In this document: one piece after another, positions 3,762-58,785 of the stretch | Layout of the letters: the number at the start of each line of letters is the position of its first letter | How positions within the stretch are numbered: the first letter of the stretch is position 1 | Assembly (NCBI GenBank): GCA_004555265.1 | Contig: SFIQ01000017.1 | Location: 11,431 to 75,430 of the forward strand | Direction of reading: 5' to 3' | DNA: 64,000 bases | Source: Ruminococcus sp. | GTDB lineage: Bacteria > Bacillota > Clostridia > Oscillospirales > Acutalibacteraceae | The notes under the pieces: generated by a model | Told to the model about the DNA's origin: nothing | Seen by the model: the letters and a program-made list of their open reading frames with translations, nothing else | The model's database searches: none | Position numbers and translations under genes: made by a program

Positions 3762-3778
3762 AATATTTATATCGCATT

Positions 3779-3950
3779 GTCATCCTGCGCGACAGCGAAG
3801 GATCTCACACAGCACAACAAAAACAAGCGTCGGGCGGGGGCTTGCTCCCGCCGTGTAAGCTTGTCATTCCGAGCCGCAGGCGAAGAATTGTCTACCACGA
3901 AAAGTGAATTGGATAAAGCAATTTTGTAGGGGCGATTCACGAATCGCCCG
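3779..3950. repeat. Repeat island A: GTCATCC..GGATCTC unit, GC hairpin, GTCATTCC..GAAGAAT unit, GTAG-hairpin (GGGCGATTCACGAATCGCCC)
   Basis: Every unit recurs elsewhere in the window (for example 18314-18399 and 8158-8183). The region is non-coding and lies between two CDSs. Confidence 0.85.
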
Positions 3951-4038
3951 AGCAATTCCGGTTTTCACACAAATGAATGGTAACGCACAATCTCGTCGGG
4001 ACGGGCTTCTGTGTCCGCCTATGCATGAGGAGAACTGT

Positions 4039-4563
4039 ATGTATACCGTCCGTACATTGAAAATACGCGAACTGCCACTGCTTCTGCGCCTATTTGACTA
4101 CAATAAACCCGTGCAGATGCTCGCCGAAAATACCCGCGGCATAAAAAACAGGAAAATAGATATTTTCGGATTGTTCCGTGACGGAAAGTTAATCGGTGAA
4201 TTGCATGTTAAGTACGAAAGTGCAGACAGCAGGGAAGCTGCACGCGGTACGCGTGCCTATTTGTTTGCATTTCGAATAGAAAAAAATTTTAGAGACAAAG
4301 GTTTCGGAAGGCTTCTTTTAAACCGCGTCATCGAACAGCTTGCCGCCGCAGGCTATACGGAATTTACTGTCGGCGTAGAAACGGATAACGCAATCGCAAA
4401 GCATATTTATGAAATGTTCGGGTTTACGGAATGTATCGCGCAAAAAGAAGAAAGCTATCAGGGCGACACATATGTATATACCCTACTGTTAAAAAAGACA
4501 CGCAGGGAACGACCGGAAATGTGTTCCGCAGAGTTTCAGCAGAATTTGGCGGGCGATTCGTGA
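4039..4563 (+). CDS. GNAT family N-acetyltransferase
   Basis: Start is the ATG at 4039, preceded by GAGGAG (the ORF-track start at 3904 lies inside repeats). It has a GNAT core (FRIEKNFRDKGFGRLLLNRVIEQL...MFGF). The last ~20 codons are repeat-derived. Confidence 0.75.
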   Translation: MYTVRTLKIRELPLLLRLFDYNKPVQMLAENTRGIKNRKIDIFGLFRDGKLIGELHVKYESADSREAARGTRAYLFAFRIEKNFRDKGFGRLLLNRVIEQLAAAGYTEFTVGVETDNAIAKHIYEMFGFTECIAQKEESYQGDTYVYTLLLKKTRRERPEMCSAEFQQNLAGDS

Positions 4564-4621
4564 ATCGCCCCTACCGAGGTTCTTGCAAGCTTGTCATTCT
4601 GAGCCGCAGGCGTAGAATCTC
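4505..4621. repeat. Repeat island B: reversed hairpin doublet ending in GGGCGATTCGTGAATCGCCCCTAC, plus a GTCATTCTGAGCCGCAGGCGTAGAATCTC unit
   Basis: The units match those at 38921-38993 and 18314-18343. Confidence 0.8.
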
Positions 4622-7987: not shown

Positions 7988-8017
7988 AACAGGGTGGGAT
8001 TTCCCCACCCTGTTTTT
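7988..8017 (+). terminator. Intrinsic terminator after proS
   Basis: An 11-bp stem (AACAGGGTGGG/CCCACCCTGTT) with a 5-nt loop, followed by a T-run. Confidence 0.7.
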
Positions 8018-8059
8018 GTGTGTAGTATGTAATAAATTGGGGGTTGTAGTGATAATTTT

Positions 8060-8945
8060 ATGCGGTAGGGCGGGGTGATTCCCCTGATAGGGGAAATGTC
8101 TGCGAAGCAGACAAAAGGGTGCCCGAATTCGGAGAATTTTGCTCCCGCCGCCCCGTTGTAGGGGCGATTCACGAATCGCCCGCCGATTTTGATATGATTT
8201 TGGGGAACGCATCTTCGGTTGTTCCCTACTCGTAGGGGCGAACTGTGTTCGCCCGCGTAATTTGATATAATTTTACGGAACGGTCAAGACCGTTCCCTAC
8301 ACGCACGAAATAAAATTTTCAGGGTAGGGCGGGGGCTTGCTCCCGCCGCCCCGTTGTAGGGGCGGGTTTCCACGCCCGCCCGTGAATTTTGATGTGACTT
8401 GCCCCTCCGTCACGCGCTTTGCGCGCGCCACCCGCTGACGGCGGCGGTCTCCCTCTGTCGCTTCGCGACATCTCCCTCACACTGTGAGGGAGTCGACCCC
8501 AACGGTTGTAGGGGCGATTCACGAATCGCCCGCCGTTTCCGCCCCCTCCGAGAGGGGGCTGTCAAATGCGCAGCATTTGACTGGGGGAGAGATTTTTTCA
8601 TTTCTCTCCCTCCGTCTTTTGCCTACGGCAAAAGCCACCCGCTGACGGCGGCGGTCTCCCTCTGTCGCTTCGCGACATCTCCCTCACACTGTGAGGGAGT
8701 CGACCCTCGTTAGAGGGAGGAATAACGGGGCGCCGAGTCGTCGCCCCCTACGCTCAAATTGCATTTTTATTTTTCAATCGGAACGGTCAAGACCGTTCCC
8801 TACACGCACGAAATGCATTTTACAGGGTAGGGCGGGGGCTTGCCCTCGCCGCGGAGTTTGAGGTGGATTAACGGCGGGAGCAAGCCCCCGCCCTACCTAT
8901 TATAACAGACATTTTCCCGAACAGGGGAATCACCCCGCACTACAA
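8060..8945. repeat. Repeat island C: about 0.9-kb mosaic of GTAGGG-headed GC hairpins, doublets, one reversed composite element and two identical 72-bp inserts
   Basis: I hand-counted 12 GTAGGG/CCCTAC heads. The units recur in islands E, F, G and I. The ORFs called here are translations of repeats. Confidence 0.9.
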
Positions 8946-9304: not shown

Positions 9305-9679
9305 TTGAGTAACCATAGGAATGGTGTAATGGGGCGAAGTGCCTACTTTTTTAAGGGGGCAGTGTGTCTCCCTCGAAAAATGTGCGCTTCGGCAGCTCAT
9401 TTTGATACACATCCTACGGTAATATTTGCTCGGGTGTGTATCATCTGTCTTCCGCCGGTTTTTGTTTTAAAAGCGGAAGCGGTGGAGGACGAACCGAGTA
9501 ACCCGTAGCGCTTTAGCGGAACCCTTCCGACGCGGTGTTCACTCGCGCGGATTGGTCAGAGGCGGAAACTATGGCGCGCAAAACAAGTCGGCGAGTGTGC
9601 CCCGCGCCGACCGCGTAATACGGGGCACGGAATGCATTATACATATTGTAATGCAAAACTAAATAGGAGGAAAACACTT
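9305..9679 (+). promoter_or_regulatory. Long (~375 nt) structured 5' leader of the giant dockerin gene; candidate cis-regulatory RNA of unknown class
   Basis: Helices at 9404-9414/9432-9442, 9449-9455/9473-9479 and 9633-9639/9649-9655. An interleaved pair (9587-9593/9605-9611 and 9597-9604/9621-9628) suggests a pseudoknot or a switch. Confidence 0.45.
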
Positions 9680-12600
9680 ATGAAAAAGTCTACAAAATTG
9701 TTAAGTGTCATCTTAGCAATTGTCATGCTTTTCTCATGCATGTCGGTTATGGCTTCGGCATATCAAGCGTATGACGACAGCCAGGAAGCCGTGTATACGT
9801 CAAACGATACCGGCTTGGCTATGCTTTTGACCGATGAGCAGAGAGCCTCTTGGTTCTGCGACACAGTTAACGGCCTTTTGGCAAGTGTTAACATTAAAGC
9901 AAGCGTTCCCGTTGTCGGTACCATCGACTTTACAAGCCTTGACGCTACTTGCGATACTCTCGCAAGCCTGAAAGGTCTTATCGGATTCATGGGTATCGGT
10001 CTGGACCTCGGTATTATCGAACAACTCGATTTGTCCACCATCGACGGTAACGAGTCTGTCAACAACGCTGTCAATATGGTTGACGAACTCATTGTGTTCG
10101 TAGACAAAAACGTCGACACTTTGGGCAACGTCATCGGCAGCGGCGTTAGCTTCGGTATCTTGGGCGGCGCTATCCCCGTTGATTTGACCGCAGTTAACGA
10201 GATTCTTGTAAATCTTGACGATTTCCTGAAAGGCACCATCTACGGCCTTGGCGCGCGCAAGCTTACAGGCGGCATCGGTGACGATCCCGCTTTGCCGAAC
10301 GCACCGCTTTGGAAAGATATGGCTTCCAAGCCCACCTTGGACAAAATCGTGAAGGATTTGCTTGTGAACCTGTTGACCACACCGCGTCATACGGAAAACA
10401 TCACCGATCCTTCCCAGAACTTGATTTGCACCGATCCCACAACTTACGGCGCAACTGCCGCGATGATTCACACCGAAAAGGCTGTGGATTCCGCAGGCAA
10501 CCCCGTTTTGGATGAAAACGGCAATCAGGTAACATGGTACTATATTTACGGTACACTGCTTGCTGACGGCACATGGAAGTTTACAGAGACTTCAACCGCA
10601 AGCAACGGCACCGACGACAAAAACTACATCACGCATTGGGATGAAGATAGCTGCCTGCTGAAGAATTTCGATAAATCAATTCTTGATTTCGAAACCAAGA
10701 CCTTGTATCAGATGCTCGGCGACGCGCTTCCGTGGGCGTATAACACCTTCGGCGCACCGAACCTTGACGGTCAGCTTCGTGCAACCATCATGCAGTTCTG
10801 CGGCGCGATCAACAGAGCGGTAACCGATGAAGCCATCACCGCGCAGTTGAAAGAGAAAGTGCTTGCATATCAGGCAATCGAAGACAACGGCGCTGCGAAT
10901 GGCAGAGCACTCCTCAGCGACGCTATGGAAGCGAAAGTCGGCGAAGCCGGTAACTACAACTTCCAGTACATCTCGCTTTCCGGCAAAGACATCAACACCA
11001 TGCCCGATGACCTGTACTATGTGGTACAGTGGGGCGACGGTTGGGAATTCTACCATGTTGACTTCACACAGATGGCAGGCGAAAAGCTTGAACTCTTCAA
11101 GATGCTCAACTGGGAATGGCAGGCTCCGGCTTGGTCCGAAATTATGCCGACCTTGGATTCCACCAGTGATTCTTATCTTCGCAACATTACCGATGCGATC
11201 GGTAAAATCCTGAATAAGGCTGTTGTGAACCTCGAATGGACTTATGACAGCGGCTCTGAAGACAATGCGCACTTTGAATCGAATGTAATGGGCTTGGTAC
11301 GCAAAGTTCTCAAAACTGCGCCCAACCTCATCTACGGTAAGAACGACGCTTACAAAGCAGAAGCAATCGACACCCAGACCGACGAACAGGTTATCGCGGT
11401 TCTCGGCGTGGATATCATCGAGTGGCTCATGCCCTCTATTGTAATTCCGGCCGATGTGGATTGCCTTGAAGCGATTGTTGTTTACGGCGTCCGCGAGTTC
11501 ATTGCGGAAATCCTGCCCGAATACAACTGGGATACCCAAATCAAAGCGGCTTCGACCGATGAAGATTATCTGAACATCGCTTTGGATATGGGTGCTTCTA
11601 TCGGCGTTTACTATTTGAAGAACGTGATGGGTCTCGGCACCACGACGAACGGCAGCGGTACCACGACTTACACTTCACCCGACCAGTACATCGCGCCCAG
11701 CACAGATTGCGCAACCGGCTGGAACACGAAGTTGAACTACATTGTGGATACCCTCCTTCAATTGTGGGTTCCCGATCTGACTTCGAAGATCGTTTCCAGA
11801 AACGCGACTGTCATGAACGGCACTGACGCGCTTGACAAACTTTCCATCATCTTCAATGCCTTGTTCCCCGGTCTTCTTTCCTTGATTTCCGGGTGCGACG
11901 CTACCATCGGTAACGGCACCAACAAGGCTTGCACAGTTGACCTCAAAGTAGTGAAGGATCTCCTTGCAGGTATCCTTGACCTTCGAATTGAGCCGATTGC
12001 TGCAAAACTGTACAGAAACTCCACCGGTTACGGCAACAAACAACTTTACAACGCAGTTGTAAATATTTTGATCGACCTTACAACCGGCCTTGGTTTCAAT
12101 GACTCTCCTGACTATGCAAACTTGGTAACCTCTTTGAACAACGCTTTGAAAGCAACCAATCCGTTGGATTACTTGGTTACCAATGCAAACCTCAAAGTGA
12201 CCGTGAAGAACCTTCTCTGGTCCATCACGGATGACGCCAACAAGGGCATGTGGGTACAGGATCTTCTCGCGATCCTCATGCAGGTGACCGGCAAGATGGA
12301 CGATATGGTCCTCAAGGGCATCAATCAGACCATCGACCAGTTCAAATATGTTGGTTCAACAACACCCACAATCAAAACACAGATTACCCTTGATACCGAC
12401 GGTCTGAAATCCGTTTGGTATGACGGCGGTTACCGCAGCGGTAACTTCGTACAGGACGGTGCATATTCAGGTCTTTTGAAAAAGCTTGAAATCGTTGACC
12501 TTGAAGGCAACGTTGTTGCAACAAAGGATCTCAATGTTACATTGAATCCCAACGAAACATACGAGACAACAATCACAGGTGTTGCAAGCACCGACGCGGC

Positions 12601-14944
12601 GGCTTACACGCTGAAGTCTTATGTTATCGTTACCTTGCCCGACGGCACCACGAAGGCAAACAACGGTGAGCCCATTGTGACCACCTCGAACTTCATTACC
12701 GCCGCGGCGGCACAGGACGATACCGTGAACATGGTTACCGTTTTGAACAAAGTCGGTCCGAATAACGACGTTACCGCAAAGATGTGGAACATCTATGTTG
12801 ATGAAAACACACCGCTCTCGGCAATCGAAGGCTACAAGATGTATGTTGGTACAACTTCTGCAAAAGCGCGTAAGCTCTACATCTCCGGCTTCGGTTACCT
12901 GGACTTGAACGCTGACGGCTCCGTCTCCTTCCGGGCTGACCAGGCAAACGCTTTCACTTGGACAAAGAAGGTTTACGAAGAAGGCAAATCCGCCGTTACT
13001 TCCACTATCAAACCGGCAGACTGTGCAACACCGGTTGCAGGCGGCGTTCCGGCGTTCTGGAAATGGAACAACGACTATTCAGGCACCGAGTTCGGTACAA
13101 ACAAAGACTGGTCCGAGATGAACAGCCAGCAGTACGCAGTTGATAAAGTAAACTTCAACCGTGCTATGTATTCTGCTGACTTCACCGTATTCGCATTTAC
13201 AGCCAAGGTAACCGTTTGGTGCTATAATAACGCGTTTAGCAAACCCACGAAGGAGGTTGACTTCACTTCACAACCTTCTTTGATCTTCTACAACTCCTAC
13301 GGACTTGAAGGTCTCATTCAGAGAGCGTTGAACTCCAACAGAGTTGCTGCAGACTACACAACCGAGTCCTGGAACGCTTACATTGCCGCTTTGAAAGCCG
13401 CAATCGCAGAGTTCTACATGGCAAAATCAGCCGCGACCTTCGTTTCTGACCACCAGACGAACGGCATCTCCGACTTCAAGACCGCAGGTGAAAACCTCAC
13501 GGCGGCGATTGAAGGCTTGGTGGCAGTGACCGAGTCTGCGTCCTCCGCGACCGATTACACGGCTGAAGAAAAAGCAGTTCTGAATTCCTTGAAGGCTACG
13601 CTTGACGCCCAGGGCAAAAAGGAAAACCTCAACAACAAGAACTACATTATGTATCGTTGGCTGAAATACTACAATGAGTATGCTTGGCTCAACGGCATTT
13701 ACGACAACGCACAGATTCCTTCGGGCGTTGCGGACAGCAAACTGACAGGCGTTCCGTCTGACAAAATCACAACCGCTATCGCAGCAGCACCCGAAAACAA
13801 ACAGGGCGCGTTGAACGCCATGGTTGTAGCACCCACCGAGGAAGAATCCGCAGCAGCAGCAAAAGCAAGAGCAGACTTCCTTGAAAATCTGCCCACGCTT
13901 GACCTGACCTCTATTCAGGTTGACATGGCACAGATGGCACAGTATGAATCTCGCTTGATTGCGCGTTCGCCGGCAACCTATTATTTGAATGACGCCTATA
14001 AGATGGCAAATGCCATTACCGATCCCGCCGCTTACACGGCTGAATCTTGGACGAAATTCAATACGGCAAGAACTGCGGCTTACAATGTTTCGGCGGATCC
14101 CACTTCGACTCCGGCTGAAATTCACGAAGCGAGATATAACCTTCTTGTTGCTTACAAGGCTTTGACGAAGGCAGGCACCGATGTTGACCTCACCGCACTT
14201 CGTGATGTGATGGCGTATGTTGACACCATCTGCGCAAATCCGACCTTGTTCCAGCCCACAGCGGCTTCCGGCTACAAAACCCTCGATGAAGCGCTCGCAG
14301 CTGTATTCGCAGAAGCAGGCGTGAAAGTAACTGTCGGTAAAGACACTTACTACATCGGCGGCGGCGACACCGGCGCAGCTTGGCTCGACGAAGCAGGCAT
14401 GAGAACTGCACTCGAAGGACAGGAAACAGTTGACCGCGTTGTCAAAGAAATCAAAGCAGAACTTGCAAACATCGAGAGCACCATTAAGGTTGTTCCCAAT
14501 GATACGGTTGCGGACAACACCACAACGGTTGACTATGCAAACCTGATTGTTGACGGCATTAAACCCGGCACAATCAACACCACCGCTGAACTCCTTGCGC
14601 TCGTGAAGACCACCGCGCCGGCAGGCTACACTGCAAACCTTGCAGTTACCGCTTCCGCGGCAAACGGCTTCGGTACCGGCACAAAGGTTGTTCTGACCGT
14701 GAACGGCATTGACGGCTTTGAAATCAACCACACCGTTATGGTTTACGGCGATGTGAACGGCGACGGCGCAATCGACGCATTCGACGCTGCACTCATCAAC
14801 ATGAACGTAACCGGCGCGTCGGCTCTGACCGGTGACTTTGCAACGGCAGGCGACACAACGGCTGACGGTGCGATCAACGCATCTGACTATGCCGCAGTTG
14901 CAGCCTATGCAATCGGTGCAGGCACCATCGCACAGACTCGCTGA
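9680..14944 (+). CDS. Giant secreted protein (1,754 aa) with a C-terminal dockerin; the N-terminal ~1,150 aa are unassigned
   Basis: ATG at 9680 after AGGAGG. Signal peptide MKKSTKLLSVILAIVMLFSCMSVMASA. FIVAR-like helical repeats (YTTESWNAY.., YTAESWTKFNTARTAAY..). Dockerin repeats DVNGDGAIDAFD and DTTADGAINASD. Confidence 0.9.
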   Translation: MKKSTKLLSVILAIVMLFSCMSVMASAYQAYDDSQEAVYTSNDTGLAMLLTDEQRASWFCDTVNGLLASVNIKASVPVVGTIDFTSLDATCDTLASLKGLIGFMGIGLDLGIIEQLDLSTIDGNESVNNAVNMVDELIVFVDKNVDTLGNVIGSGVSFGILGGAIPVDLTAVNEILVNLDDFLKGTIYGLGARKLTGGIGDDPALPNAPLWKDMASKPTLDKIVKDLLVNLLTTPRHTENITDPSQNLICTDPTTYGATAAMIHTEKAVDSAGNPVLDENGNQVTWYYIYGTLLADGTWKFTETSTASNGTDDKNYITHWDEDSCLLKNFDKSILDFETKTLYQMLGDALPWAYNTFGAPNLDGQLRATIMQFCGAINRAVTDEAITAQLKEKVLAYQAIEDNGAANGRALLSDAMEAKVGEAGNYNFQYISLSGKDINTMPDDLYYVVQWGDGWEFYHVDFTQMAGEKLELFKMLNWEWQAPAWSEIMPTLDSTSDSYLRNITDAIGKILNKAVVNLEWTYDSGSEDNAHFESNVMGLVRKVLKTAPNLIYGKNDAYKAEAIDTQTDEQVIAVLGVDIIEWLMPSIVIPADVDCLEAIVVYGVREFIAEILPEYNWDTQIKAASTDEDYLNIALDMGASIGVYYLKNVMGLGTTTNGSGTTTYTSPDQYIAPSTDCATGWNTKLNYIVDTLLQLWVPDLTSKIVSRNATVMNGTDALDKLSIIFNALFPGLLSLISGCDATIGNGTNKACTVDLKVVKDLLAGILDLRIEPIAAKLYRNSTGYGNKQLYNAVVNILIDLTTGLGFNDSPDYANLVTSLNNALKATNPLDYLVTNANLKVTVKNLLWSITDDANKGMWVQDLLAILMQVTGKMDDMVLKGINQTIDQFKYVGSTTPTIKTQITLDTDGLKSVWYDGGYRSGNFVQDGAYSGLLKKLEIVDLEGNVVATKDLNVTLNPNETYETTITGVASTDAAAYTLKSYVIVTLPDGTTKANNGEPIVTTSNFITAAAAQDDTVNMVTVLNKVGPNNDVTAKMWNIYVDENTPLSAIEGYKMYVGTTSAKARKLYISGFGYLDLNADGSVSFRADQANAFTWTKKVYEEGKSAVTSTIKPADCATPVAGGVPAFWKWNNDYSGTEFGTNKDWSEMNSQQYAVDKVNFNRAMYSADFTVFAFTAKVTVWCYNNAFSKPTKEVDFTSQPSLIFYNSYGLEGLIQRALNSNRVAADYTTESWNAYIAALKAAIAEFYMAKSAATFVSDHQTNGISDFKTAGENLTAAIEGLVAVTESASSATDYTAEEKAVLNSLKATLDAQGKKENLNNKNYIMYRWLKYYNEYAWLNGIYDNAQIPSGVADSKLTGVPSDKITTAIAAAPENKQGALNAMVVAPTEEESAAAAKARADFLENLPTLDLTSIQVDMAQMAQYESRLIARSPATYYLNDAYKMANAITDPAAYTAESWTKFNTARTAAYNVSADPTSTPAEIHEARYNLLVAYKALTKAGTDVDLTALRDVMAYVDTICANPTLFQPTAASGYKTLDEALAAVFAEAGVKVTVGKDTYYIGGGDTGAAWLDEAGMRTALEGQETVDRVVKEIKAELANIESTIKVVPNDTVADNTTTVDYANLIVDGIKPGTINTTAELLALVKTTAPAGYTANLAVTASAANGFGTGTKVVLTVNGIDGFEINHTVMVYGDVNGDGAIDAFDAALINMNVTGASALTGDFATAGDTTADGAINASDYAAVAAYAIGAGTIAQTR

Positions 14945-14950
14945 GTTCTC

Positions 14951-15110
14951 AAATTGTAGGGCGGGTTATGCGCCCGCCCCGTAGGAAAACGCACTTCTCA
15001 ACCGCCCCACTCGTGGGGAGGCGGCACGCCGTCAGGCGTGCCGGAGGGGCGCGGGCGAATGCAATTCGCCCCTACAAACACAAACCGCATTGTGCAACCC
15101 ACAATGCAAC
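14951..15110. repeat. Repeat island D: chain of at least 5 GC hairpins directly after the giant gene stop (two are GTAG/CTAC-headed)
   Basis: Examples are GGCACGCC-GTCA-GGCGTGCC (15024-15043), GGGCGAATGCAATTCGCCCCTAC and GCATTGTG..CACAATGC. Confidence 0.8.
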
Positions 15111-15350: not shown

Positions 15351-15379
15351 ATATGGGAAGAAAATATAAGGAGGATATT

Positions 15380-16462
15380 ATGACAAAAGCTAAAAAAGTA
15401 TTAAGCCTTGTTTTAGCTGTTGTTATGGTTGCTGCGATGTTTGCATTCTCGGCTTCGGCCGCTACGCAGAATGCAACCTTCACCGTTTCCGTTGATAATG
15501 CGACTGTTTCGCAGAACGATGTTATCACTGTTACGGTGAACTTGACAACGGATTATTATGCCGGCCCGACCAATGTTCCGGTGTATTACAATCCCGCAGT
15601 CTTTGAATTCGTCGCAGGCTCTGTTACCGGTGCCAAAATTTTCGGCGAAGGTGCAACAGATGTGCAATCCTATAACGACGCTGTTACAGGCTGCTTGAAA
15701 GTGGCTTTCATCCCCAACACGGCTGGCACCGCTGCCGCAAAGCTTCTGAACGGGACTTTGTTCACTTTCCAGTTAAAAGCGATTGCTGACGGCACTTCCG
15801 ACATCGGCTTGAAAGCTGAAGACCAGAAGACGGCAACCAACATCGGCGGTACTTTGTACTGCGGTGCTTACACTTCTTCTGCGATTGACAACAATCCGGC
15901 TACTGTTGGCCAGACCTTTGCAATCACCAACACTTCTGCTACCGTTGGCGCTACTGCGGCTCCTGAACTTCAGTTGTCCGAAACCGGCGCGGCAAACGGA
16001 GCGGTTATTGACAGAGTTTCTACTTGCAATGATGGCGTTGGTTTCGTGTACGGCATTGCAACTCATGAGGGCGAAATGATTTCGGACTATTTGACCACGC
16101 CCGCAGGTAGCATTCAAGTTGTCGCGAATGACCAAGGGAATGAATCCACTGGTACGTTGATTCAATTGCTTGACGATGGTGGAAATGTGGTTGAAACCTA
16201 CATTTTCGTTCTCTTTGGCGATGTAAATGGCGACGGTGCAATTGATAGTACTGATGTTACAGATATTGAATCCGTTGCTATGTATTTAAATACTGACAAC
16301 TATGCTGATGATGGTACAGCATGGAGTATAGCTGCTGATACCAACGGCGATTCCTCAATTGACAGTACTGATGTTACAGATGTGGAAGGTGTCGCAATGT
16401 ACACCGTGTCCACAACACAGGCTGAATTTGCAGCCGCCTTTGTAAGTGGCAAAGGCATTTAA
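15380..16462 (+). CDS. Secreted cohesin-like module protein with a C-terminal dockerin (adaptor-scaffoldin-like)
   Basis: AAGGAGG RBS and signal peptide MTKAKKVLSLVLAVVMVAAMFAFSASA. The cohesin-like pattern is TFTVSVDNATVSQNDVITVTVNL..YYNPAVFEFV..LFTFQLKAIADGTSDI. The dockerin repeats are DVNGDGAIDSTD and DTNGDSSIDSTD. Confidence 0.8.
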   Translation: MTKAKKVLSLVLAVVMVAAMFAFSASAATQNATFTVSVDNATVSQNDVITVTVNLTTDYYAGPTNVPVYYNPAVFEFVAGSVTGAKIFGEGATDVQSYNDAVTGCLKVAFIPNTAGTAAAKLLNGTLFTFQLKAIADGTSDIGLKAEDQKTATNIGGTLYCGAYTSSAIDNNPATVGQTFAITNTSATVGATAAPELQLSETGAANGAVIDRVSTCNDGVGFVYGIATHEGEMISDYLTTPAGSIQVVANDQGNESTGTLIQLLDDGGNVVETYIFVLFGDVNGDGAIDSTDVTDIESVAMYLNTDNYADDGTAWSIAADTNGDSSIDSTDVTDVEGVAMYTVSTTQAEFAAAFVSGKGI

Positions 16463-18080: not shown

Positions 18081-18115
18081 GCAAGGCAAGGGTTTATCCC
18101 TTGCCTTGCTTTTTT
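18081..18115 (+). terminator. Strong intrinsic terminator closing the cohesin-dockerin operon
   Basis: A perfect 12-bp stem (GCAAGGCAAGGG/CCCTTGCCTTGC) with a 5-nt loop and TTTTTT. Confidence 0.85.
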
Positions 18116-18159: not shown

Positions 18160-19065
18160 GCGTAGGGGGCGACGAGATTCCCCTGTTAGGGGAAATGTCG
18201 AGCGGCGACAAAGGGGTAATGGCGCAGCCGTAACTCGCCGACCCGAAAATGATGAATAATGAAAAATGAATAATGAAAAATTGTAGGGGTGAACTGTGTT
18301 CGCCCGCCCGCTTGTCATTCTGAGCCGACAGGCGAAGAATCTCGTTTCGTATATTTTTATTTTGCGCTATTGGAGATCCTTCGCTTCGCTCAGGATGACA
18401 AATTTGGGTTTGTAGGGCAAACGCATTCTATTTCTTGCGTAGGGGGCGACGACTCGGCGCCCCGTTTGTAGGGGCGGGTTTCCACGCCCGCCCGTAGATT
18501 TTGATGTGATTTTGCGGAACAACACGGAGGTTGTTCCCTACTCGTAGGGGCGAACTGTGTTCGCCCGCATAATTTGATATAATTTTGCGGAACTGTCAAG
18601 ACCGTTTCCTACGATTGTAGGGGCGATTCACGAATCGCCCGCCGTTTCCGCCCCTCCGAGAGAGGGCATAAGCGGCGAGAGCAAGCCCCCGCCCTACCAT
18701 AGAAATTCCATTTCATGCGTAGGGGGCGACGACTCGGCGCCCCGTTTGTAGGGGCGGGTTTCCACGCCCGCCCGCCAATTTTGATGTGATTTTGCGGAAC
18801 AACATGGAGGTTGTTTCCTACTCGTAGGGGCGAACTGTGTTCGCCCGCGTAATTTGATATAATTTTGCGGAACGGTCAAGACCGTTCCCTACGGGTTGTA
18901 GGGGCGATTCACGAAATTTCGTGCGTAGGGGGCGCCGAGTCGTCGCCCCCTACGCTCGCATTACAGTTTGCCCGTTCCGTAATTCAAAGCAAATCCCGCG
19001 GCGGGAGCAAAATTCTCCGAATTCGGGCACCTTGCGGCGGGGGCAAGCCCCCGCCCTACCCTAAT
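18160..19065. repeat. Repeat island E: about 0.9-kb mosaic of GTAGGG-headed hairpins, including a 280-bp-offset tandem duplication
   Basis: I hand-counted 17 GTAGGG/CCCTAC heads. Doublets lie at 18468-18541, 18544-18612, 18748-18821 and 18824-18892. There is a GTCATTCTGAGC../..CAGGATGAC inverted pair at 18314-18399. Confidence 0.9.
18246..18292. repeat. Right arm of the inverted repeat bracketing the island (AAAATGATGAATAATGAAAAATGAATAATGAAAAATTGTAGGGGTGA)
   Basis: Its reverse complement aligns with 8931-8980. Confidence 0.6.
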
Positions 19066-19292
19066 CCTGTATTTCGTTTGTTCCAAAAACACCCCCCACA
19101 ACCCCCAATTTAACTTCAACCTTTCGCAACCGTGGGTGGTTGTTGGGGCGCACGCACCTTGGAGGCACAGCACAAAAACGAGCCAAAACACAACATCTTG
19201 TGCCCGAAAAACGGAGTAGAACTATAAAAAATCCAAAATTTTTAAAATCGAAAAAATTTGTTTGGATTCACGAATTTTTTTGAAAAAAATTG

Positions 19293-38543: not shown

Positions 38544-39180
38544 TAGATTAGTGGCGTAGCCGCAATCCTTATATTCCTCCCTCTGGGAGGGAGGTGGCAC
38601 GCGCAAAGCGCGTGACGGAGGGAGAGAGAAAATATCTGCTTGTTTCTCTCCCCCAGTCAAATGCTGTGCATTTGACAGCCCCCTCGTCAGAGGGGGCGGA
38701 AACGGCGGGGGTAAAATTCTCCGAATTCGGGCACTTTGCGGCGGGGGCAAAATTCTCCGAATTCGGACACCCTTTTGTCTGCTTTGCAGACATTTCCCCT
38801 ATCAGGGGAATCACCCCGCCCTACCCTGAAAATTTTATTTCGTGCGTAGGGAACGGTCTTGACCGTTCCGCGAAATGACATCGCTTTTTTTCGGGCGAAC
38901 ACAGTTCGCCCCTACGATTCGTAGGGAACGACCTAAGTGTCGTTCCGCAAAGTCACATCAAATGCACGGGCGGGCGCGGAGACCCGCCCCTACAACGGGG
39001 CGCCGGGTCGGCGCCCCGTTGTTCCTCCCTCTTAGAGGGAGGTGGCTTTTGCCGTAGGCAAAAGACGGAGGGAGAGAGGAAATATCTGCTTGTTTCTCTC
39101 CCCCAGTCAAATGCGTTGCATTTGACAGCCCCCTCTCGGAGGGGGCGGAAACGGCGGGGGCAAGCCCCCGCCCTACCGTA
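38544..39180. repeat. Repeat island F: two copies of the multi-hairpin composite element (38544-38709, 39023-39158) plus reversed GTAG hairpins
   Basis: It is near-identical to 58151-58319 and 41458-41589. I hand-counted 6 GTAGGG/CCCTAC heads. Confidence 0.9.
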
Positions 39181-41010: not shown

Positions 41011-41047
41011 ACCGCGGCACACTTGCAAAGTGTGCCGCGGTCTTTTG
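41011..41047 (+). terminator. Intrinsic terminator after the PAP2 gene
   Basis: A 13-bp stem (ACCGCGGCACACT/AGTGTGCCGCGGT) followed by CTTTTG. Confidence 0.75.
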
Positions 41048-41054
41048 CAGGGGA

Positions 41055-41615
41055 TAAATTGGGGTTTGTGGGGCAAATGCATTTCACCTGGTAGGGCGGG
41101 GGCTTGCTCCCGCCGTCAATTCACATCGAACCCTGCGGCGGGGGCTTGCCCCCGCCCTACATGCACACGATTGATTTTATGTGTAGGGGCGATTCACGAA
41201 TCGCCCGCAAGGCTTGATGTGATTTTGCGGAACAACACTAAGGTTGTTCCCTACGAATCGTAGGGGCGAACTGTGTTCGCCCGCCTAATTGTCATTCTGA
41301 GCCGTTAGGCGAAGAATCTCGTTCCGCTCGGGTTTATTTTGTGCTATTGGAGATCCTTCGCTATCGCGCAGGATGACAAATTGGGGTTTGTGGGGATATT
41401 AACGGAACGGGCAAACTGTAATGCGAGCGTAGGGGTCGGCGTCTCGACGACCCGTTATTCCTCCCTCTGACGAGGGAGGTGGCTTTTGCCGCAGGCAAAA
41501 GCCGGAGGGAGAGAAACGGAAAAAATCTCTCCCCCAGTCAAATGCTACGCATTTGACAGCCCCCTCTCGGAGGGGGCGGAAACGGCGGGCGATTCGTGAA
41601 TCGCCCCTACGGTTG
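41055..41615. repeat. Repeat island G: GTAG hairpins, a doublet (41183-41254), a GTCATTCTGAGC../..CAGGATGAC inverted pair (41291-41377) and a composite element (41458-41589)
   Basis: The same unit families occur in islands C, E, F and I. I hand-counted 7 GTAGGG/CCCTAC heads. Confidence 0.9.
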
Positions 41616-41709
41616 GATAAACAACCCCCAATTTTACGCCTTTTGTATCGTTTCTGCCTTGGCTTGCGCTTGCTCGGATGCCACGGAAATGCCACGCGTG
41701 CTTTGCACC

Positions 41710-42483: not shown

Positions 42484-42539
42484 GTTACCGCCTCCTTAAA
42501 AGGTGAGGGCGTGACACCAACTCGGTGTTCCCCTCCTTA

Positions 42540-42722
42540 GGGTAACGGTAATAATCCGAACCACGGTTTATCGCGGCGGATTTGCCCTTACTCTTCGTTA
42601 AAATACTCGTTAATCCGAAAGGATTAACTGCGTTTTTGCCTCGATTAAGACCAAATCTGCACACGATAAACTGATCGCTTTAATACTGCATTTTTGACGG
42701 GTTCGGATTATTATCGTTACCC
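42540..42722. mobile_element. MITE copy 1 (183 bp, full length): 26-bp terminal inverted repeats (with the TA flank) and a TA flank on both sides
   Basis: TTAGGGTAACGGTAATAATCCGAACC at the left and its inverse (1 mismatch) at the right. It contains an internal GTTAATCC-GAAA-GGATTAAC hairpin. The second copy is at 49587-49726. Confidence 0.8.
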
Positions 42723-42765
42723 TAACTAATATGGGAACTCCCGATGAAAAATGCAAAAGAAACCC

Positions 42766-48296: not shown

Positions 48297-49648
48297 AAGC
48301 GGCAGTCATCGGTGCGGGTCTCGCAGGTGTTGAGGCGGCTTGGCAACTGATAAAACACGGCATTTCGGTGGATTTGTATGAAATGAAACCCGAAAAACGC
48401 TCCCCCGCGCACAAAACCGATTGGTTCGCGGAGTTGGTTTGTTCCAATTCCTTAAAAGCCGAACGGCACAATTCCGCCGCAGGGCTTTTGAAAGAGGAAA
48501 TGGCTTCGTTCGGCTCGCTGTGCGTCGAAAGCGCTTTGCAGTCGCGCGTGCCCGCAGGCGGTGCGCTGGCGGTGGATCGCGATCGGTTTTCGGAATATAT
48601 TACGAAAAAAATCGAAGAAAATCCCCATATTACCGTCATTCACAAAGAGGTAACCGACTTGCCGGACGGCTATGATACGGTGATTATCGCGGCAGGGCCT
48701 TTGGCGAGTGACGGCATCAGCGAAACGGTACGCGCACTTGCGGGGGACGGGCTGTCCTTTTATGACGCCGCCGCGCCGATTGTTACCGCCGAAAGCGTGG
48801 ATATGAACGAAGCGTTTACCCAATCGCGCTATGACCGCGGCGGGGCGGACGATTATATCAACTGTCCGCTTGACAAAGCGCAGTACGAGGCGTTTTATGA
48901 AGCACTCGTAACCGCCGAAAGCGCAGAATTACACAGTTTTGACAAGCGCAAAGATGTGTACGAGGGCTGTATGCCCATTGAGGTACTCGCCTCGCGCGGG
49001 AAAGAGGCGATGCGCTACGGGCCGTTAAAACCCGTGGGGCTTGTGAACCCCAAAACGGGACACCGCCCGTGGGCGAATTTGCAACTGCGCAAAGAAAATT
49101 GCGCGGGCACGCTTTACAATTTGGTCGGCTTTCAAACCAACTTGAAATTCGGCGAGCAAAAGCGTGTATTTTCGATGTTTCCGGCACTTAAAAATGCGGA
49201 ATTCGTGCGCTACGGCGTGATGCACCGCAATACCTTTTTAGATTCCCCACGCCACTTAAACGGTGATTTTTCCTTGCGCAACCGCCCCGAAATTTTCTTT
49301 GCGGGGCAAATTACGGGCGTGGAAGGGTATATGGAGTCTGCCGCGTCGGGCATTTTGGCGGGCTTAAACGCCGCGCGGCGCTTACAGGCTTTGCAAACGG
49401 TGATTTTACCCGAAACTACCATGATGGGTGCACTCGCGCGGTATATCAGCGACGAGAGCGTGCGCGATTTTCAGCCGATGGGCGCCAATTTCGGGGTACT
49501 GCCGCCGCTTGACGAAAAAATCCGCGACAAGGCCTTGCGGTATACGGCGCTTGCCGATCGCGCCGAAGCGGATTTGCAGAAATTTAGGGTAACGGAAATA
49601 ATCCGAACCACGGTTTCTCGTGGCGGATTTGCCCTTACTCTTCGTTAA
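48293..49648 (+). CDS. trmFO: Methylenetetrahydrofolate--tRNA-(uracil-5-)-methyltransferase TrmFO; the last 17 codons are encoded by a MITE
   Basis: FAD motif VIGAGLAGVEAAWQL. ATGA overlap with topA. The tail VTEIIRTTVSRGGFALTLR lies inside element 49587-49726. Confidence 0.9.
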   Translation: MKAAVIGAGLAGVEAAWQLIKHGISVDLYEMKPEKRSPAHKTDWFAELVCSNSLKAERHNSAAGLLKEEMASFGSLCVESALQSRVPAGGALAVDRDRFSEYITKKIEENPHITVIHKEVTDLPDGYDTVIIAAGPLASDGISETVRALAGDGLSFYDAAAPIVTAESVDMNEAFTQSRYDRGGADDYINCPLDKAQYEAFYEALVTAESAELHSFDKRKDVYEGCMPIEVLASRGKEAMRYGPLKPVGLVNPKTGHRPWANLQLRKENCAGTLYNLVGFQTNLKFGEQKRVFSMFPALKNAEFVRYGVMHRNTFLDSPRHLNGDFSLRNRPEIFFAGQITGVEGYMESAASGILAGLNAARRLQALQTVILPETTMMGALARYISDESVRDFQPMGANFGVLPPLDEKIRDKALRYTALADRAEADLQKFRVTEIIRTTVSRGGFALTLR

Positions 49649-49726
49649 AATACTCGTTAATCCGAAAGGATTAACTGCGTTTTTGCCTCGATTAAGACCA
49701 AATCTGCACACGATAAACTGTTACCC
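49587..49726. mobile_element. MITE copy 2 (140 bp, internally deleted at its right end)
   Basis: It is near-identical to 42540-42671 and then jumps to the terminal GTTACCC. TA flanks lie at 49585-49586 and 49727-49728. Confidence 0.8.
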
Positions 49727-49744
49727 TAGGGAGGAACAAGGGCT

Positions 49745-56009: not shown

Positions 56010-56306
56010 GGTACCTCGCGTACCTTTGTACGCGTCGCCGTCGGGAAAATGCACACTGCATCAAAATCTTACGCTACGCCGAGGATCGCGTGTGCCGGCT
56101 GTTTGTCGCATTTTTCCCCGCAATCTTGCGTACCTTTGTACGCGTCGGCAGTGCAAAAAGCCACCATACAACCAATCTTACGCTACGCCGAGGCTCGCGG
56201 GCGAACGCAGTTCGCCCCTACAAAGCGTAGGGGCGAAAACACATCGAATCTACGGGCGGCCGAGGTCGTCCGCCCCTACAAACGGGCGCGCGATGCACGC
56301 CCCTAC
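56010..56306. repeat. Repeat island H: ~110-bp tandem duplication followed by reversed CCCCTAC-tailed hairpins
   Basis: GCGTACCTTTGTACGCG occurs at 56018 and 56128, and AATCTTACGCTACGCCGAGG at 56065 and 56174. CCCCTAC tails end at 56221, 56278 and 56306. Confidence 0.85.
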
Positions 56307-58150: not shown

Positions 58151-58505
58151 TTTAGATTAGCGGCGTAGCCGCAATCCTTATATTCCTCCCTCTGGGAGGG
58201 AGGTGGCTTTTGCCGTAGGCAAAAGACGGAGGGAGAGAGGAAATATCTGCTTGTTTCTCTCCCCCAGTCAAATGCTGTGCATTTGACAGCCCCCTCTCGG
58301 AGGGGGGCGGAAACGGCGGGAGCAAGCCCCCGCCCTACCCTGTAAAATGCATTTCGTACGCAAACCGCAAAAAAGATGTAATTTATTACGGGTCGTCGAG
58401 GACGTCGACCCCTACGCGTTGTCATTCTGAGCCGATAGGCGAAGAATCTCGTGTCGTATATTTTTGTTTTGTGCTTTTGGAGATCCTTCGCTTCGCTCAG
58501 GATGA
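58151..58505. repeat. Repeat island I: composite multi-hairpin element (58151-58319), GC hairpins and a GTCATTCTGAGC../..CAGGATGA inverted pair (58421-58505)
   Basis: It is near-identical to 38544-38709. Its last unit overlaps the yhbY start region. Confidence 0.9.
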
Positions 58506-58785
58506 AGAACGCGCGGCTTTGCGCGCACAGGCAAATTCCATAAAAGCGCTGTTTCAAGTCGGCAAAGACGGTATTACGGACGCGCTGATTAAACAGACCG
58601 ACGACGCGCTCGAAGCGCGGGAATTGATTAAACTGAAAGTGTTGCTCGAAACCGCGCCCGAAAAGCCGTATGATATTGCCGACAAATTGGCGGCGGCAAC
58701 CCATGCCGAGGTGGTTTCGGTGGTGGGTGGCTCGATGGTCTTTTACCGCTACAACAAAAAACTGCATGAAAAGAAAAAGAAATAA
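58471..58785 (+). CDS. yhbY: YhbY-family (CRM-domain) RNA-binding protein
   Basis: LRAQANSIKALFQVGKDGIT..ELIKLKV.. The only in-frame starts (GTG 58471, TTG 58477) lie inside a repeat unit. Confidence 0.75.
   Translation: MLLEILRFAQDEERAALRAQANSIKALFQVGKDGITDALIKQTDDALEARELIKLKVLLETAPEKPYDIADKLAAATHAEVVSVVGGSMVFYRYNKKLHEKKKK

Follow-up and report, generated by a model that had tools for sequence, protein, structure and literature searches.

The stretch of DNA analysed here (the window) is 64,000 nt of an assembly assigned to Ruminococcus sp. (Acutalibacteraceae; GenBank GCA_004555265.1, contig SFIQ01000017.1, positions 11,431 to 75,430), and the RpoA that it encodes is identical to MDO4154134.1 of a Candidatus Fimenecus sp. 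metagenome-assembled genome (MAG; Clostridia). Downstream of proS lies a dense cluster of short GC-rich hairpins, the focal island (8065-8945), one of nine such islands in the window. A first-pass annotation, made from the letters alone, had proposed that these hairpins, which share a 5' GTAGGG head, form a system of repetitive extragenic palindromes (REPs) of the kind handled by REP-associated tyrosine transposases (RAYTs). The focal island is enclosed by a 39-nt inverted repeat and contains the following features, given with the proS terminator that stands upstream of it:

7988-8014, plus strand: canonical intrinsic terminator of proS, an 11-bp stem followed by a T-run, between the stop codon and the island
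8065-8103, plus strand: left arm of the terminal inverted repeat, GTAGGGCGGGGTGATTCCCCTGATAGGGGAAATGTCTGC, with an F-type head and an expanded interior (the H form)
8158-8181, plus strand: unit A, copy 1, identical to the unit embedded in RAYT genes
8202-8229, minus strand: E-like unit with a degenerate stem, in a heads-outward dimer with unit A through the linker GATTTTGATATGATTTTG
8232-8254, plus strand: unit B, GTAGGGGCGAACTGTGTTCGCCC, found again in frame within two RAYT genes, those of L193 and L229
8277-8300, minus strand: unit D, GTAGGGAACGGTCTTGACCGTTCC, heads-outward dimer partner of B
8324-8347, plus strand: unit F, GTAGGGCGGGGGCTTGCTCCCGCC, with a stem also embedded in two RAYT genes (L175 and L209)
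8356-8381, plus strand: unit C, GTAGGGGCGGGTTTCCACGCCCGCCC
8427-8499, no strand assigned: headless 73-nt module, copy 1, identical to copy 2
8508-8531, plus strand: unit A, copy 2
8532-8583, minus strand: headless double-hairpin module, CCCCCTC..GAGGGGG and GTCAAATGC..GCATTTGAC
8634-8706, no strand assigned: headless 73-nt module, copy 2
8727-8751, minus strand: unit G, GTAGGGGGCGACGACTCGGCGCCCC
8780-8803, minus strand: unit D, copy 2
8827-8896, no strand assigned: F(+)/F(-) dimer, heads outward and REPIN-like (REPIN, REP doublet forming hairpin); its counterpart at 41089-41162 forms a single long hairpin
8907-8945, minus strand: right arm of the terminal inverted repeat, with the head variant GTAGTG

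The GTAGGG head and its complement CCCTAC were counted on both strands of the window, with dinucleotide-preserving shuffles as a control. We found 59 heads compared to 10.2 +/- 2.8 in the shuffles (maximum 17), and 52 of the 59 fall within the nine islands, which together cover 4,091 bp (6.4% of the window); the seven heads that lie outside, spread across 59.9 kb, are at about the chance level. The enrichment claimed in the first-pass annotation is real, and every hairpin stem quoted there was located in the window. Its further statement that nearly all the hairpins begin with GTAGGG has to be narrowed, since the islands that hold the 52 heads also hold six headless motifs. Directly 3' of the head, a hairpin with a stem of at least 7 bp (one mismatch at most, loop of 9 nt or less) is present in 45 of the 59 cases, and the stem nearly always begins at +4. 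When all hairpins in the window with a stem of at least 8 bp were scanned, GTAG was the tetranucleotide immediately 5' of the stem in 39; TAGG ranked second (n = 16), which we take to be these same hairpins shifted by one base, and all remaining tetranucleotides occurred eight times or fewer. The association between the GTAGGG head and a hairpin holds.

The units are 23-28 nt long, with a GC-rich stem of 7-9 bp that opens with G-C pairs and a loop of 2-8 nt, and within the islands 28 heads lie on the plus strand and 24 on the minus strand. Folding of eight unit types as single-stranded DNA left GTAG unpaired in all eight and gave stems of 7-8 bp, with energies of -6.8 to -10.9 kcal/mol and z scores of -2.7 to -4.7. 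A CRISPR array was rejected on the grounds that the spacing is irregular, the orientations are mixed, and the "spacers" are themselves repeated; attC-like sites were rejected on anatomy. Nine unit families were distinguished:

Family A: GTAGGGGCGATTCACGAATCGCCC, that is, GTAG followed by GGGCGATTC-AC-GAATCGCCC; the commonest unit
Family B: GTAGGGGCGAACTGTGTTCGCCC
Family C: GTAGGGGCGGGTTTCCACGCCCGCCC
Family D: GTAGGGAACGGTCTTGACCGTTCC
Family E: GTAGGGAACAACC...GTTGTTCC
Family F: GTAGGGCGGGGGCTTGCYCCCGCC
Family G: GTAGGGGGCGACGACTCGGCGCCCC
Family H: an F-headed form with an expanded interior
Family I: GTAGGGGTCGRCGTC(C)TCGACGACCC

Most units occur as heads-outward dimers (A/E, C/E, B/D, and F/F) with conserved linkers, GATTTTGATGTGATTTTG in the A/E and C/E dimers and GTAATTTGATATAATTTT in the B/D dimers. 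In A/E and B/D dimers, each unit folds into a hairpin of its own. The F-F dimers (8827-8896 and 41089-41162) consist of inverted copies of one stem, and because such a dimer forms a single long hairpin (-31.2 kcal/mol, z -7.4), we regard them as REPIN-like. A double-foot unit, in which GTAG at one end is matched by CTAC at the other, is exemplified at 18925-18953. Whole series of units, such as G+ C+ E- B+ D- A+, are also repeated in a fixed order, and there are repeats of 189 nt and 124 nt, so the mosaics are partly block duplications.

An exact search for unit A, with one genome per species, returned at least 119 tiles. Most come from MAGs of Oscillospirales (Acutalibacteraceae, Fimenecus, Faecousia, and Oscillospiraceae), and others from Dehalococcoidia, Gallionella, Nitrosomonadales, Geobacteraceae, and Omnitrophota, among others. 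Nine of the tiles, seven of them from Clostridia MAGs, hold a RAYT-like open reading frame (ORF) with unit A inside it or beside it. These ORFs match the Pfam family Y1_Tnp (PF01797), four of six exceeding the Pfam cut-off, and the HUH histidines (N-H-x-H), the WQR motif, and the tyrosine motif Y-I-x-x-N are invariant among them. A homologue search with E. coli RayT gave Enterobacteriaceae only and served as a crude hidden Markov model. The best solved relative of the associated proteins, and the top PDB match of their profile, is 4ER8, the E. coli TnpAREP (E 2.5e-10), which ranked above the transposases of the insertion sequence (IS) family IS200/IS605.

In the RAYT genes from Clostridia, unit A occurs twice in frame, heads outward, and brackets the segment that codes for the HUH motif (VGAIHESP ... 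PNHIH ... RAIRESPL). The forward copy encodes VGAIHESP, in the loop after the first strand, and the reverse copy encodes RAIRESPL, directly after the HUH strand. Genes with this paired arrangement are as follows:

L094, 2138-2620, minus strand: RAYT gene with paired unit A
L155, 3608-4210, minus strand: RAYT gene with paired unit A
L146, 7329-7772, minus strand: RAYT gene with paired unit A
L091, 2741-3283, minus strand: RAYT gene with paired unit A

The gene at L137:109-549 lacks everything between the two copies: it has a single double-foot REP, VVGAIHESPLRGRS, and the HUH motif is gone, as if the catalytic cassette had been precisely deleted. A search with the RAYT profile matched at least 7,960 non-redundant proteins. 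Among the best 120 matches, a sample biased by word matching, VGAIHESP was present in 111 and AI[RH]ESPL in 88. A less biased set was obtained by collecting 80 RAYT loci from metagenomes (L160-L239) by the HUH and WQR motifs alone. Of these, 71 carry an embedded GTAGGG hairpin and 51 a forward-plus-reverse pair, representing 87 distinct sequences. REPs located within 1 kb of a RAYT gene match the REP embedded in that gene at 16 of 27 loci, compared to 75 of 1890 cross-locus controls. Other stems of the window are found in the same position: two RAYT genes, L193 and L229, carry the B stem in frame (VGANCVRP and GRTQFAPT), L175 and L209 the F stem (VGRGLAPA), and L221 the E stem, while the RAYT gene of L168 has flanking I-type units that are close to the I units of the window. 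The REP-encoded peptides for A, B, and F lie within intact RAYT ORFs. We found no relevant paper in the literature on unit A or on the peptides GAIHESP, AIRESPL, and GRFVNRPY.

The exact 24-mer of unit A was also seen in distant phyla including Armatimonadota (L049-L159, e.g., L086, L100, L109, and L151), mostly as one intergenic or double-foot unit but inside a RAYT gene in L109 and L089. It is present in 32 IMG/VR "viral" contigs (L007-L038) as well.

We consider it probable that the islands are clusters, similar to bacterial interspersed mosaic elements (BIMEs), of GTAG-tagged REPs that belong to a RAYT (TnpAREP, HUH-Y1) clade matching subclass 2.4, and that the REPs were seeded and exchanged by RAYT variants. 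Three observations carry this interpretation: the units are identical to units in frame within RAYT genes or flanking them, each RAYT variant has its own stem, and strains with more than 99% identity differ by whole units. By analogy with E. coli TnpAREP, a RAYT would bind the folded hairpin together with GTAG on single-stranded DNA, and would cut and rejoin at GTAG hairpins, so that units could be both seeded and exchanged. The first-pass annotation had treated the many stems with one head as features of one system. The stems are indeed present, but because each RAYT variant carries its own stem, the pattern of many stems and one head is better explained by several co-resident or past variants of one clade. 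Several variants, each with its own stem, are the most likely source of the stem families, and such variants, present or past, in Ca. Fimenecus could account for the eight to nine families seen here. The proposal of a RAYT-type REP system in a Clostridia genome is supported by the exact units in and next to RAYT genes of related genomes, but in about 0.2 Mb of sequence from the genus the cognate RAYT was not found. We infer that an active cognate RAYT is present in the species from which the window comes.

Several points weigh against this interpretation. The window, 14 contigs of related strains, and six Ca. Fimenecus tiles, which together make up the 0.2 Mb, contain no RAYT gene, and when the same sequences were searched for RAYT remnants by tblastn and with a DNA profile, the REP parts alone gave matches. 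(One weak remnant match, in L058 with E 0.005, was rejected as resting mostly on REP-encoded residues.) The RAYT genes in Clostridia MAGs often have few REPs nearby besides the embedded pair, and therefore the classic REPtron layout is not general here. A large part of each island consists of headless modules, which no RAYT model explains. Finally, the indels found in the focal island, which are described below, need no transposase.

Contigs from related strains share 92-99.7% identity in the flanks of the islands that were compared. In the orthologous spacers between rlmD and the DUF2238 gene and between the PAP2 and deacetylase genes, the unit mosaics vary by strain while the flanks are conserved, although the alignments are too mosaic for clean pairs of empty and filled sites. 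In the focal island, L240 lacks the 207 nt between the two identical 73-nt modules, and L241 lacks about 320 nt between the two copies of unit A. Strains separated by these indels encode an identical PGM protein. Recombination between repeats explains the indels without a transposase. After units have been established, blocks would be gained and lost by homologous recombination between the repeated modules, and indels bounded by modules are what we observed. In strain L004, an element equivalent to the GTAGGGCGGGGTGATTCCCCTGATAGGGGAAATGTCTGC arm stands in place of an F-F dimer. Six of eight related contigs (L242-L247, from several metagenome assemblies) stop at the border of the focal island, some 100-530 nt beyond proS, as would be expected of assemblers that meet repeats.

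These data bear on the idea that the units are relics, seeded long ago and with no active cognate RAYT, in islands that now change by homologous recombination, gene conversion, and replication slippage. The lack of a RAYT in the 0.2 Mb examined for the genus would fit such a history, as would the 73-nt direct repeat and the two unit A copies that bound the focal-island indels and the movement of units in fixed multi-unit blocks. However, the comparison of the island at 41055-41615 with that of L002 (99.5% identity) revealed no difference over 450 nt, followed by two REP bodies that had been replaced, I by a G-type stem and A by a different one. These replacements involve paired changes and leave the heads and flanks intact. 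Such a clean replacement of single REP bodies by those of another family requires a donor and a precise exchange. In addition, 0.2 Mb is a small sample of the genus, and related MAGs very commonly have RAYT genes that carry these units. Taken together, we think it unlikely that the units are relics.

The units could instead be fragments or miniature derivatives of an ordinary IS such as IS200/IS605, comparable to miniature inverted-repeat transposable elements (MITEs) or palindrome-associated transposable elements (PATEs) and moved by the transposase of that IS. The HUH-Y1 transposases of IS200/IS605 also recognise subterminal hairpins, such IS are common in Clostridia (PMC6006769), and other MITE-like elements, bounded by terminal inverted repeats, are present in the islands. 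Yet neither the islands nor the window contain a Y1 or other transposase ORF or a remnant of one, and the units measure only 23-28 nt and fall into at least eight stem families. The associated proteins are nearest to TnpAREP rather than to the TnpA of IS200/IS605, and they are encoded by single genes among housekeeping genes. Derivation from an ordinary IS is therefore, in our judgement, extremely improbable. A MITE-like element with terminal inverted repeats TAGGGTAACGGTAATAATCCGAACC is present in two copies in the window (42537-42725 and 49584-49727), which are 98% identical over 137 nt, the right end of the second being shorter; the element has no relation to the GTAG units.

The first-pass annotation had also suggested that the islands probably act as transcription terminators or mRNA stabilisers. 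Besides the one that follows proS, we located canonical terminators between a stop codon and an island at two positions:

18081-18109: canonical terminator after the 17.7-18.0 kb ORFs
41012-41046: canonical terminator after PAP2

The REP hairpins lack T-runs, a feature of Rho-independent terminators. In a terminator scan of 1-20 kb, the sole GTAG-headed units that were flagged were two copies of unit C, with weak tails, and a headless island hairpin at 8583-8610 was flagged as terminator-like as well. With canonical terminators ahead of three islands, no T-runs at the hairpins, and units in both orientations, the evidence does not support a role in termination. A broader version of this idea is that the units are functional RNA elements (terminators, 3' stabilisers, or attenuators) selected at the ends of operons, with the head as a signal at the RNA level. 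It is true that all the islands are intergenic and mostly downstream of genes, and that the islands after the giant dockerin gene and after smc begin right after the stop codon with no other terminator between. At these two islands, a role as a 3' stabiliser is possible. Besides the evidence on terminators and orientation, however, the same units occur within RAYT coding sequences and in distant phyla, and no Rfam family matched in the window. Selection as RNA elements is thus very unlikely to explain the units, and we regard any role of the islands in gene expression as secondary and unproven.

The remaining eight islands, none of which was assigned a strand, lie among genes whose names in the first-pass annotation proved good where checked, namely ynbB-like (Met_gamma_lyase family), GNAT, proS, the dockerin giant, rlmD-like, PAP2, SMC, and Ham1/rdgB:

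3779-3950: F-like and A units, with one arm of the TTGTCATTCTGAGCC element
4505-4621: unit A on the minus strand; the GNAT ORF reads into this island
14951-15110: two REPs, heads outward, directly after the stop of the gene for a 1770-aa dockerin protein
18160-19065: the largest island, with 17 heads; the block G+ C+ E- B+ D- occurs twice
38544-39180: after the rlmD-like gene; the content is unlike that in every related strain and the flanks are conserved
41055-41615: after PAP2; contains the REPIN-like F-F dimer and the two REP bodies replaced in L002
56010-56306: after smc; four heads
58151-58505: after rdgB/Ham1; F and I units on the minus strand, and headless modules

The GNAT ORF (3904-4563) continues for about 25 codons into its island after the domain ends near residue 190, and its stop codon, the TGA at 4561-4563, lies in the loop of unit A; the arrangement is the same in related strains. 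The 1770-aa protein, with its C-terminal dockerin (9632-14944), and a protein with cohesin and dockerin (15353-16462) are components of the cellulosome type.

The six headless motifs are confined, within the window, to the islands or to within 60 bp of them:

73-nt unit, with copies at 8427-8499 and 8634-8706
CAGTCAAATGC..GCATTTGAC
GGCTTTTGCC..GGCAAAAG
AAAATTCTCCGAATTCGGGCAC
TTGTCATTCTGAGCC.../...CAGGATGACAA, a motif pair
AAATTGGGGGTTGTGGGG, a boundary motif

A second headless family has the arms TTGTCATTCTGAGCCGNNGGCGAAGAATCTC and GGAGATCCTTCGC...CAGGATGACAA and forms elements of about 100 nt, including three copies of 107 nt (sites at 3773-3807, 3860-3892, 4588-4621, 18308-18401, 41283-41379, and 58414-58508). 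The motif AAATTGGGGKTTGTGGGG or its reverse complement is found at the outer edges of several islands, in the manner of a boundary inverted repeat (8033-8051, 18400-18417, 41054-41073, and 41376-41395, and on the minus strand 19091-19111 and 41621-41640). The island after smc opens with a duplicated block of about 110 nt, which contains the headless hairpin CGCGTACCTTTGTACGCG and the motif TTACGCTACGCCGAGG (56015-56040, 56120-56145, 56068-56085, and 56178-56195).

Among known systems, the closest counterpart is subclass 2.4 as described by Quentin et al. 2018 (PMC6006769). The REPs of this subclass are of the canonical long type, with three G-C pairs at the base of the stem after GT[AG]G, and they include double-foot forms; its RAYT genes have REPs inside tnpAREP with the frame kept and encode the motifs NH[IFV]H, WQ, and YIxNNP. 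The subclass was found in Cyanobacteria, Bacteroidetes, and various other phyla, and Quentin et al. equate it with Group 4 of Bertels et al. 2017 (PMC5581495), which occurs mainly in Cyanobacteria, Chlorobia, and Caldilineae. Our system shares the GTAG foot, the G-C base of the stem, the double-foot units, and the in-frame REPs in RAYT genes, and the RAYTs of the related genomes have NH[IVF]H, WQ, and YIxxNP and are encoded by single genes among housekeeping genes. (For three RAYT genes that were looked up in other MAGs, each stands alone among such genes.) The associated RAYTs thus appear to match subclass 2.4, an assignment made by motifs rather than by a tree. Because these features all match, the kind of system is already known. 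It differs from the published description in its host, a gut Clostridium (Bacillota), in the presence of at least eight stem families within 64 kb, and in that the embedded copies are usually an inverted pair flanking HUH, the position given in the paper being generally between HuH and Y.

Other REP systems share parts of this anatomy. Like the REPs and BIMEs of E. coli, the units consist of GTAG and an imperfect GC palindrome, lie in extragenic clusters of alternating orientation, and are joined by conserved linkers. In contrast, the RayT of E. coli is a member of subclass 2.2 whose gene contains no REP (RAIRESPL aligns to a gap in 4ER8), and E. coli has a single REP family with three subtypes whose stems and loops differ from those found here. 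The F-F dimers resemble the REPINs of Pseudomonas fluorescens (Bertels & Rainey 2011, PMC3116915) in being inverted identical REPs that fold as one long hairpin. Unlike REPINs, most dimers here combine two different stems (A or C with E, B with D) that cannot pair into a long hairpin, and the units are parts of larger composite blocks. The GTAG families surveyed by Di Nocera et al. 2013 (PMC3733652), which include the SMAG repeats of Stenotrophomonas maltophilia, have stems of 6-13 bp and loops of 2-3 nt. They share with our units the GTAG tag, dimers with GTAG outside (HH type), clustering, and a location downstream of and inside genes, and coexisting families in one genome are already known among them, but the stem sequences here are different. 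The main text of that survey contains neither the word Firmicutes nor the word Clostridia, and Ca. Fimenecus is missing from the REP surveys consulted. The novelty lies in the host group, in how many families are packed together, and in how large the clade is in data from gut and rumen.

One further reading takes the bracketing of the HUH segment by its own in-frame REP pair as a REPIN inside a gene, that is, as a self-excisable cassette. This bracketing, the most unusual feature encountered, belongs to the RAYT genes of related genomes and not to the window. The window families would then be eight to nine co-resident lineages of enzyme and repeat, and the swaps between strains would be catalysed by the enzyme. 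The enzyme itself, or slippage at the hairpins, could delete the catalytic segment and leave a single double-foot REP, which is how the L137 allele looks. We find this reading quite doubtful. If it is true, the cassette would act as an off-switch built into the gene and as a protected master copy linking each stem family with its enzyme, and the in-place REP swaps between strains would represent enzyme-catalysed exchange rather than transposition.

Work on REPs and RAYTs has so far dealt almost entirely with Proteobacteria and Cyanobacteria and with complete genomes. The islands described here place a rich multi-family REP system in an abundant, uncultured Clostridium of the gut and rumen, and the RAYT clade to which the units are linked is very large in gut and rumen metagenomes, where its proteins regularly carry their own in-frame REP pair. 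In practical terms, such islands break short-read assemblies, create spurious small ORFs, and can lengthen or truncate real genes, as with the tail of the GNAT protein; they are also usable as strain-level markers. In addition, the pairing of RAYT variants with their own stems offers a natural set of enzyme and stem pairs for studying how RAYT specificity co-evolves with the hairpin.

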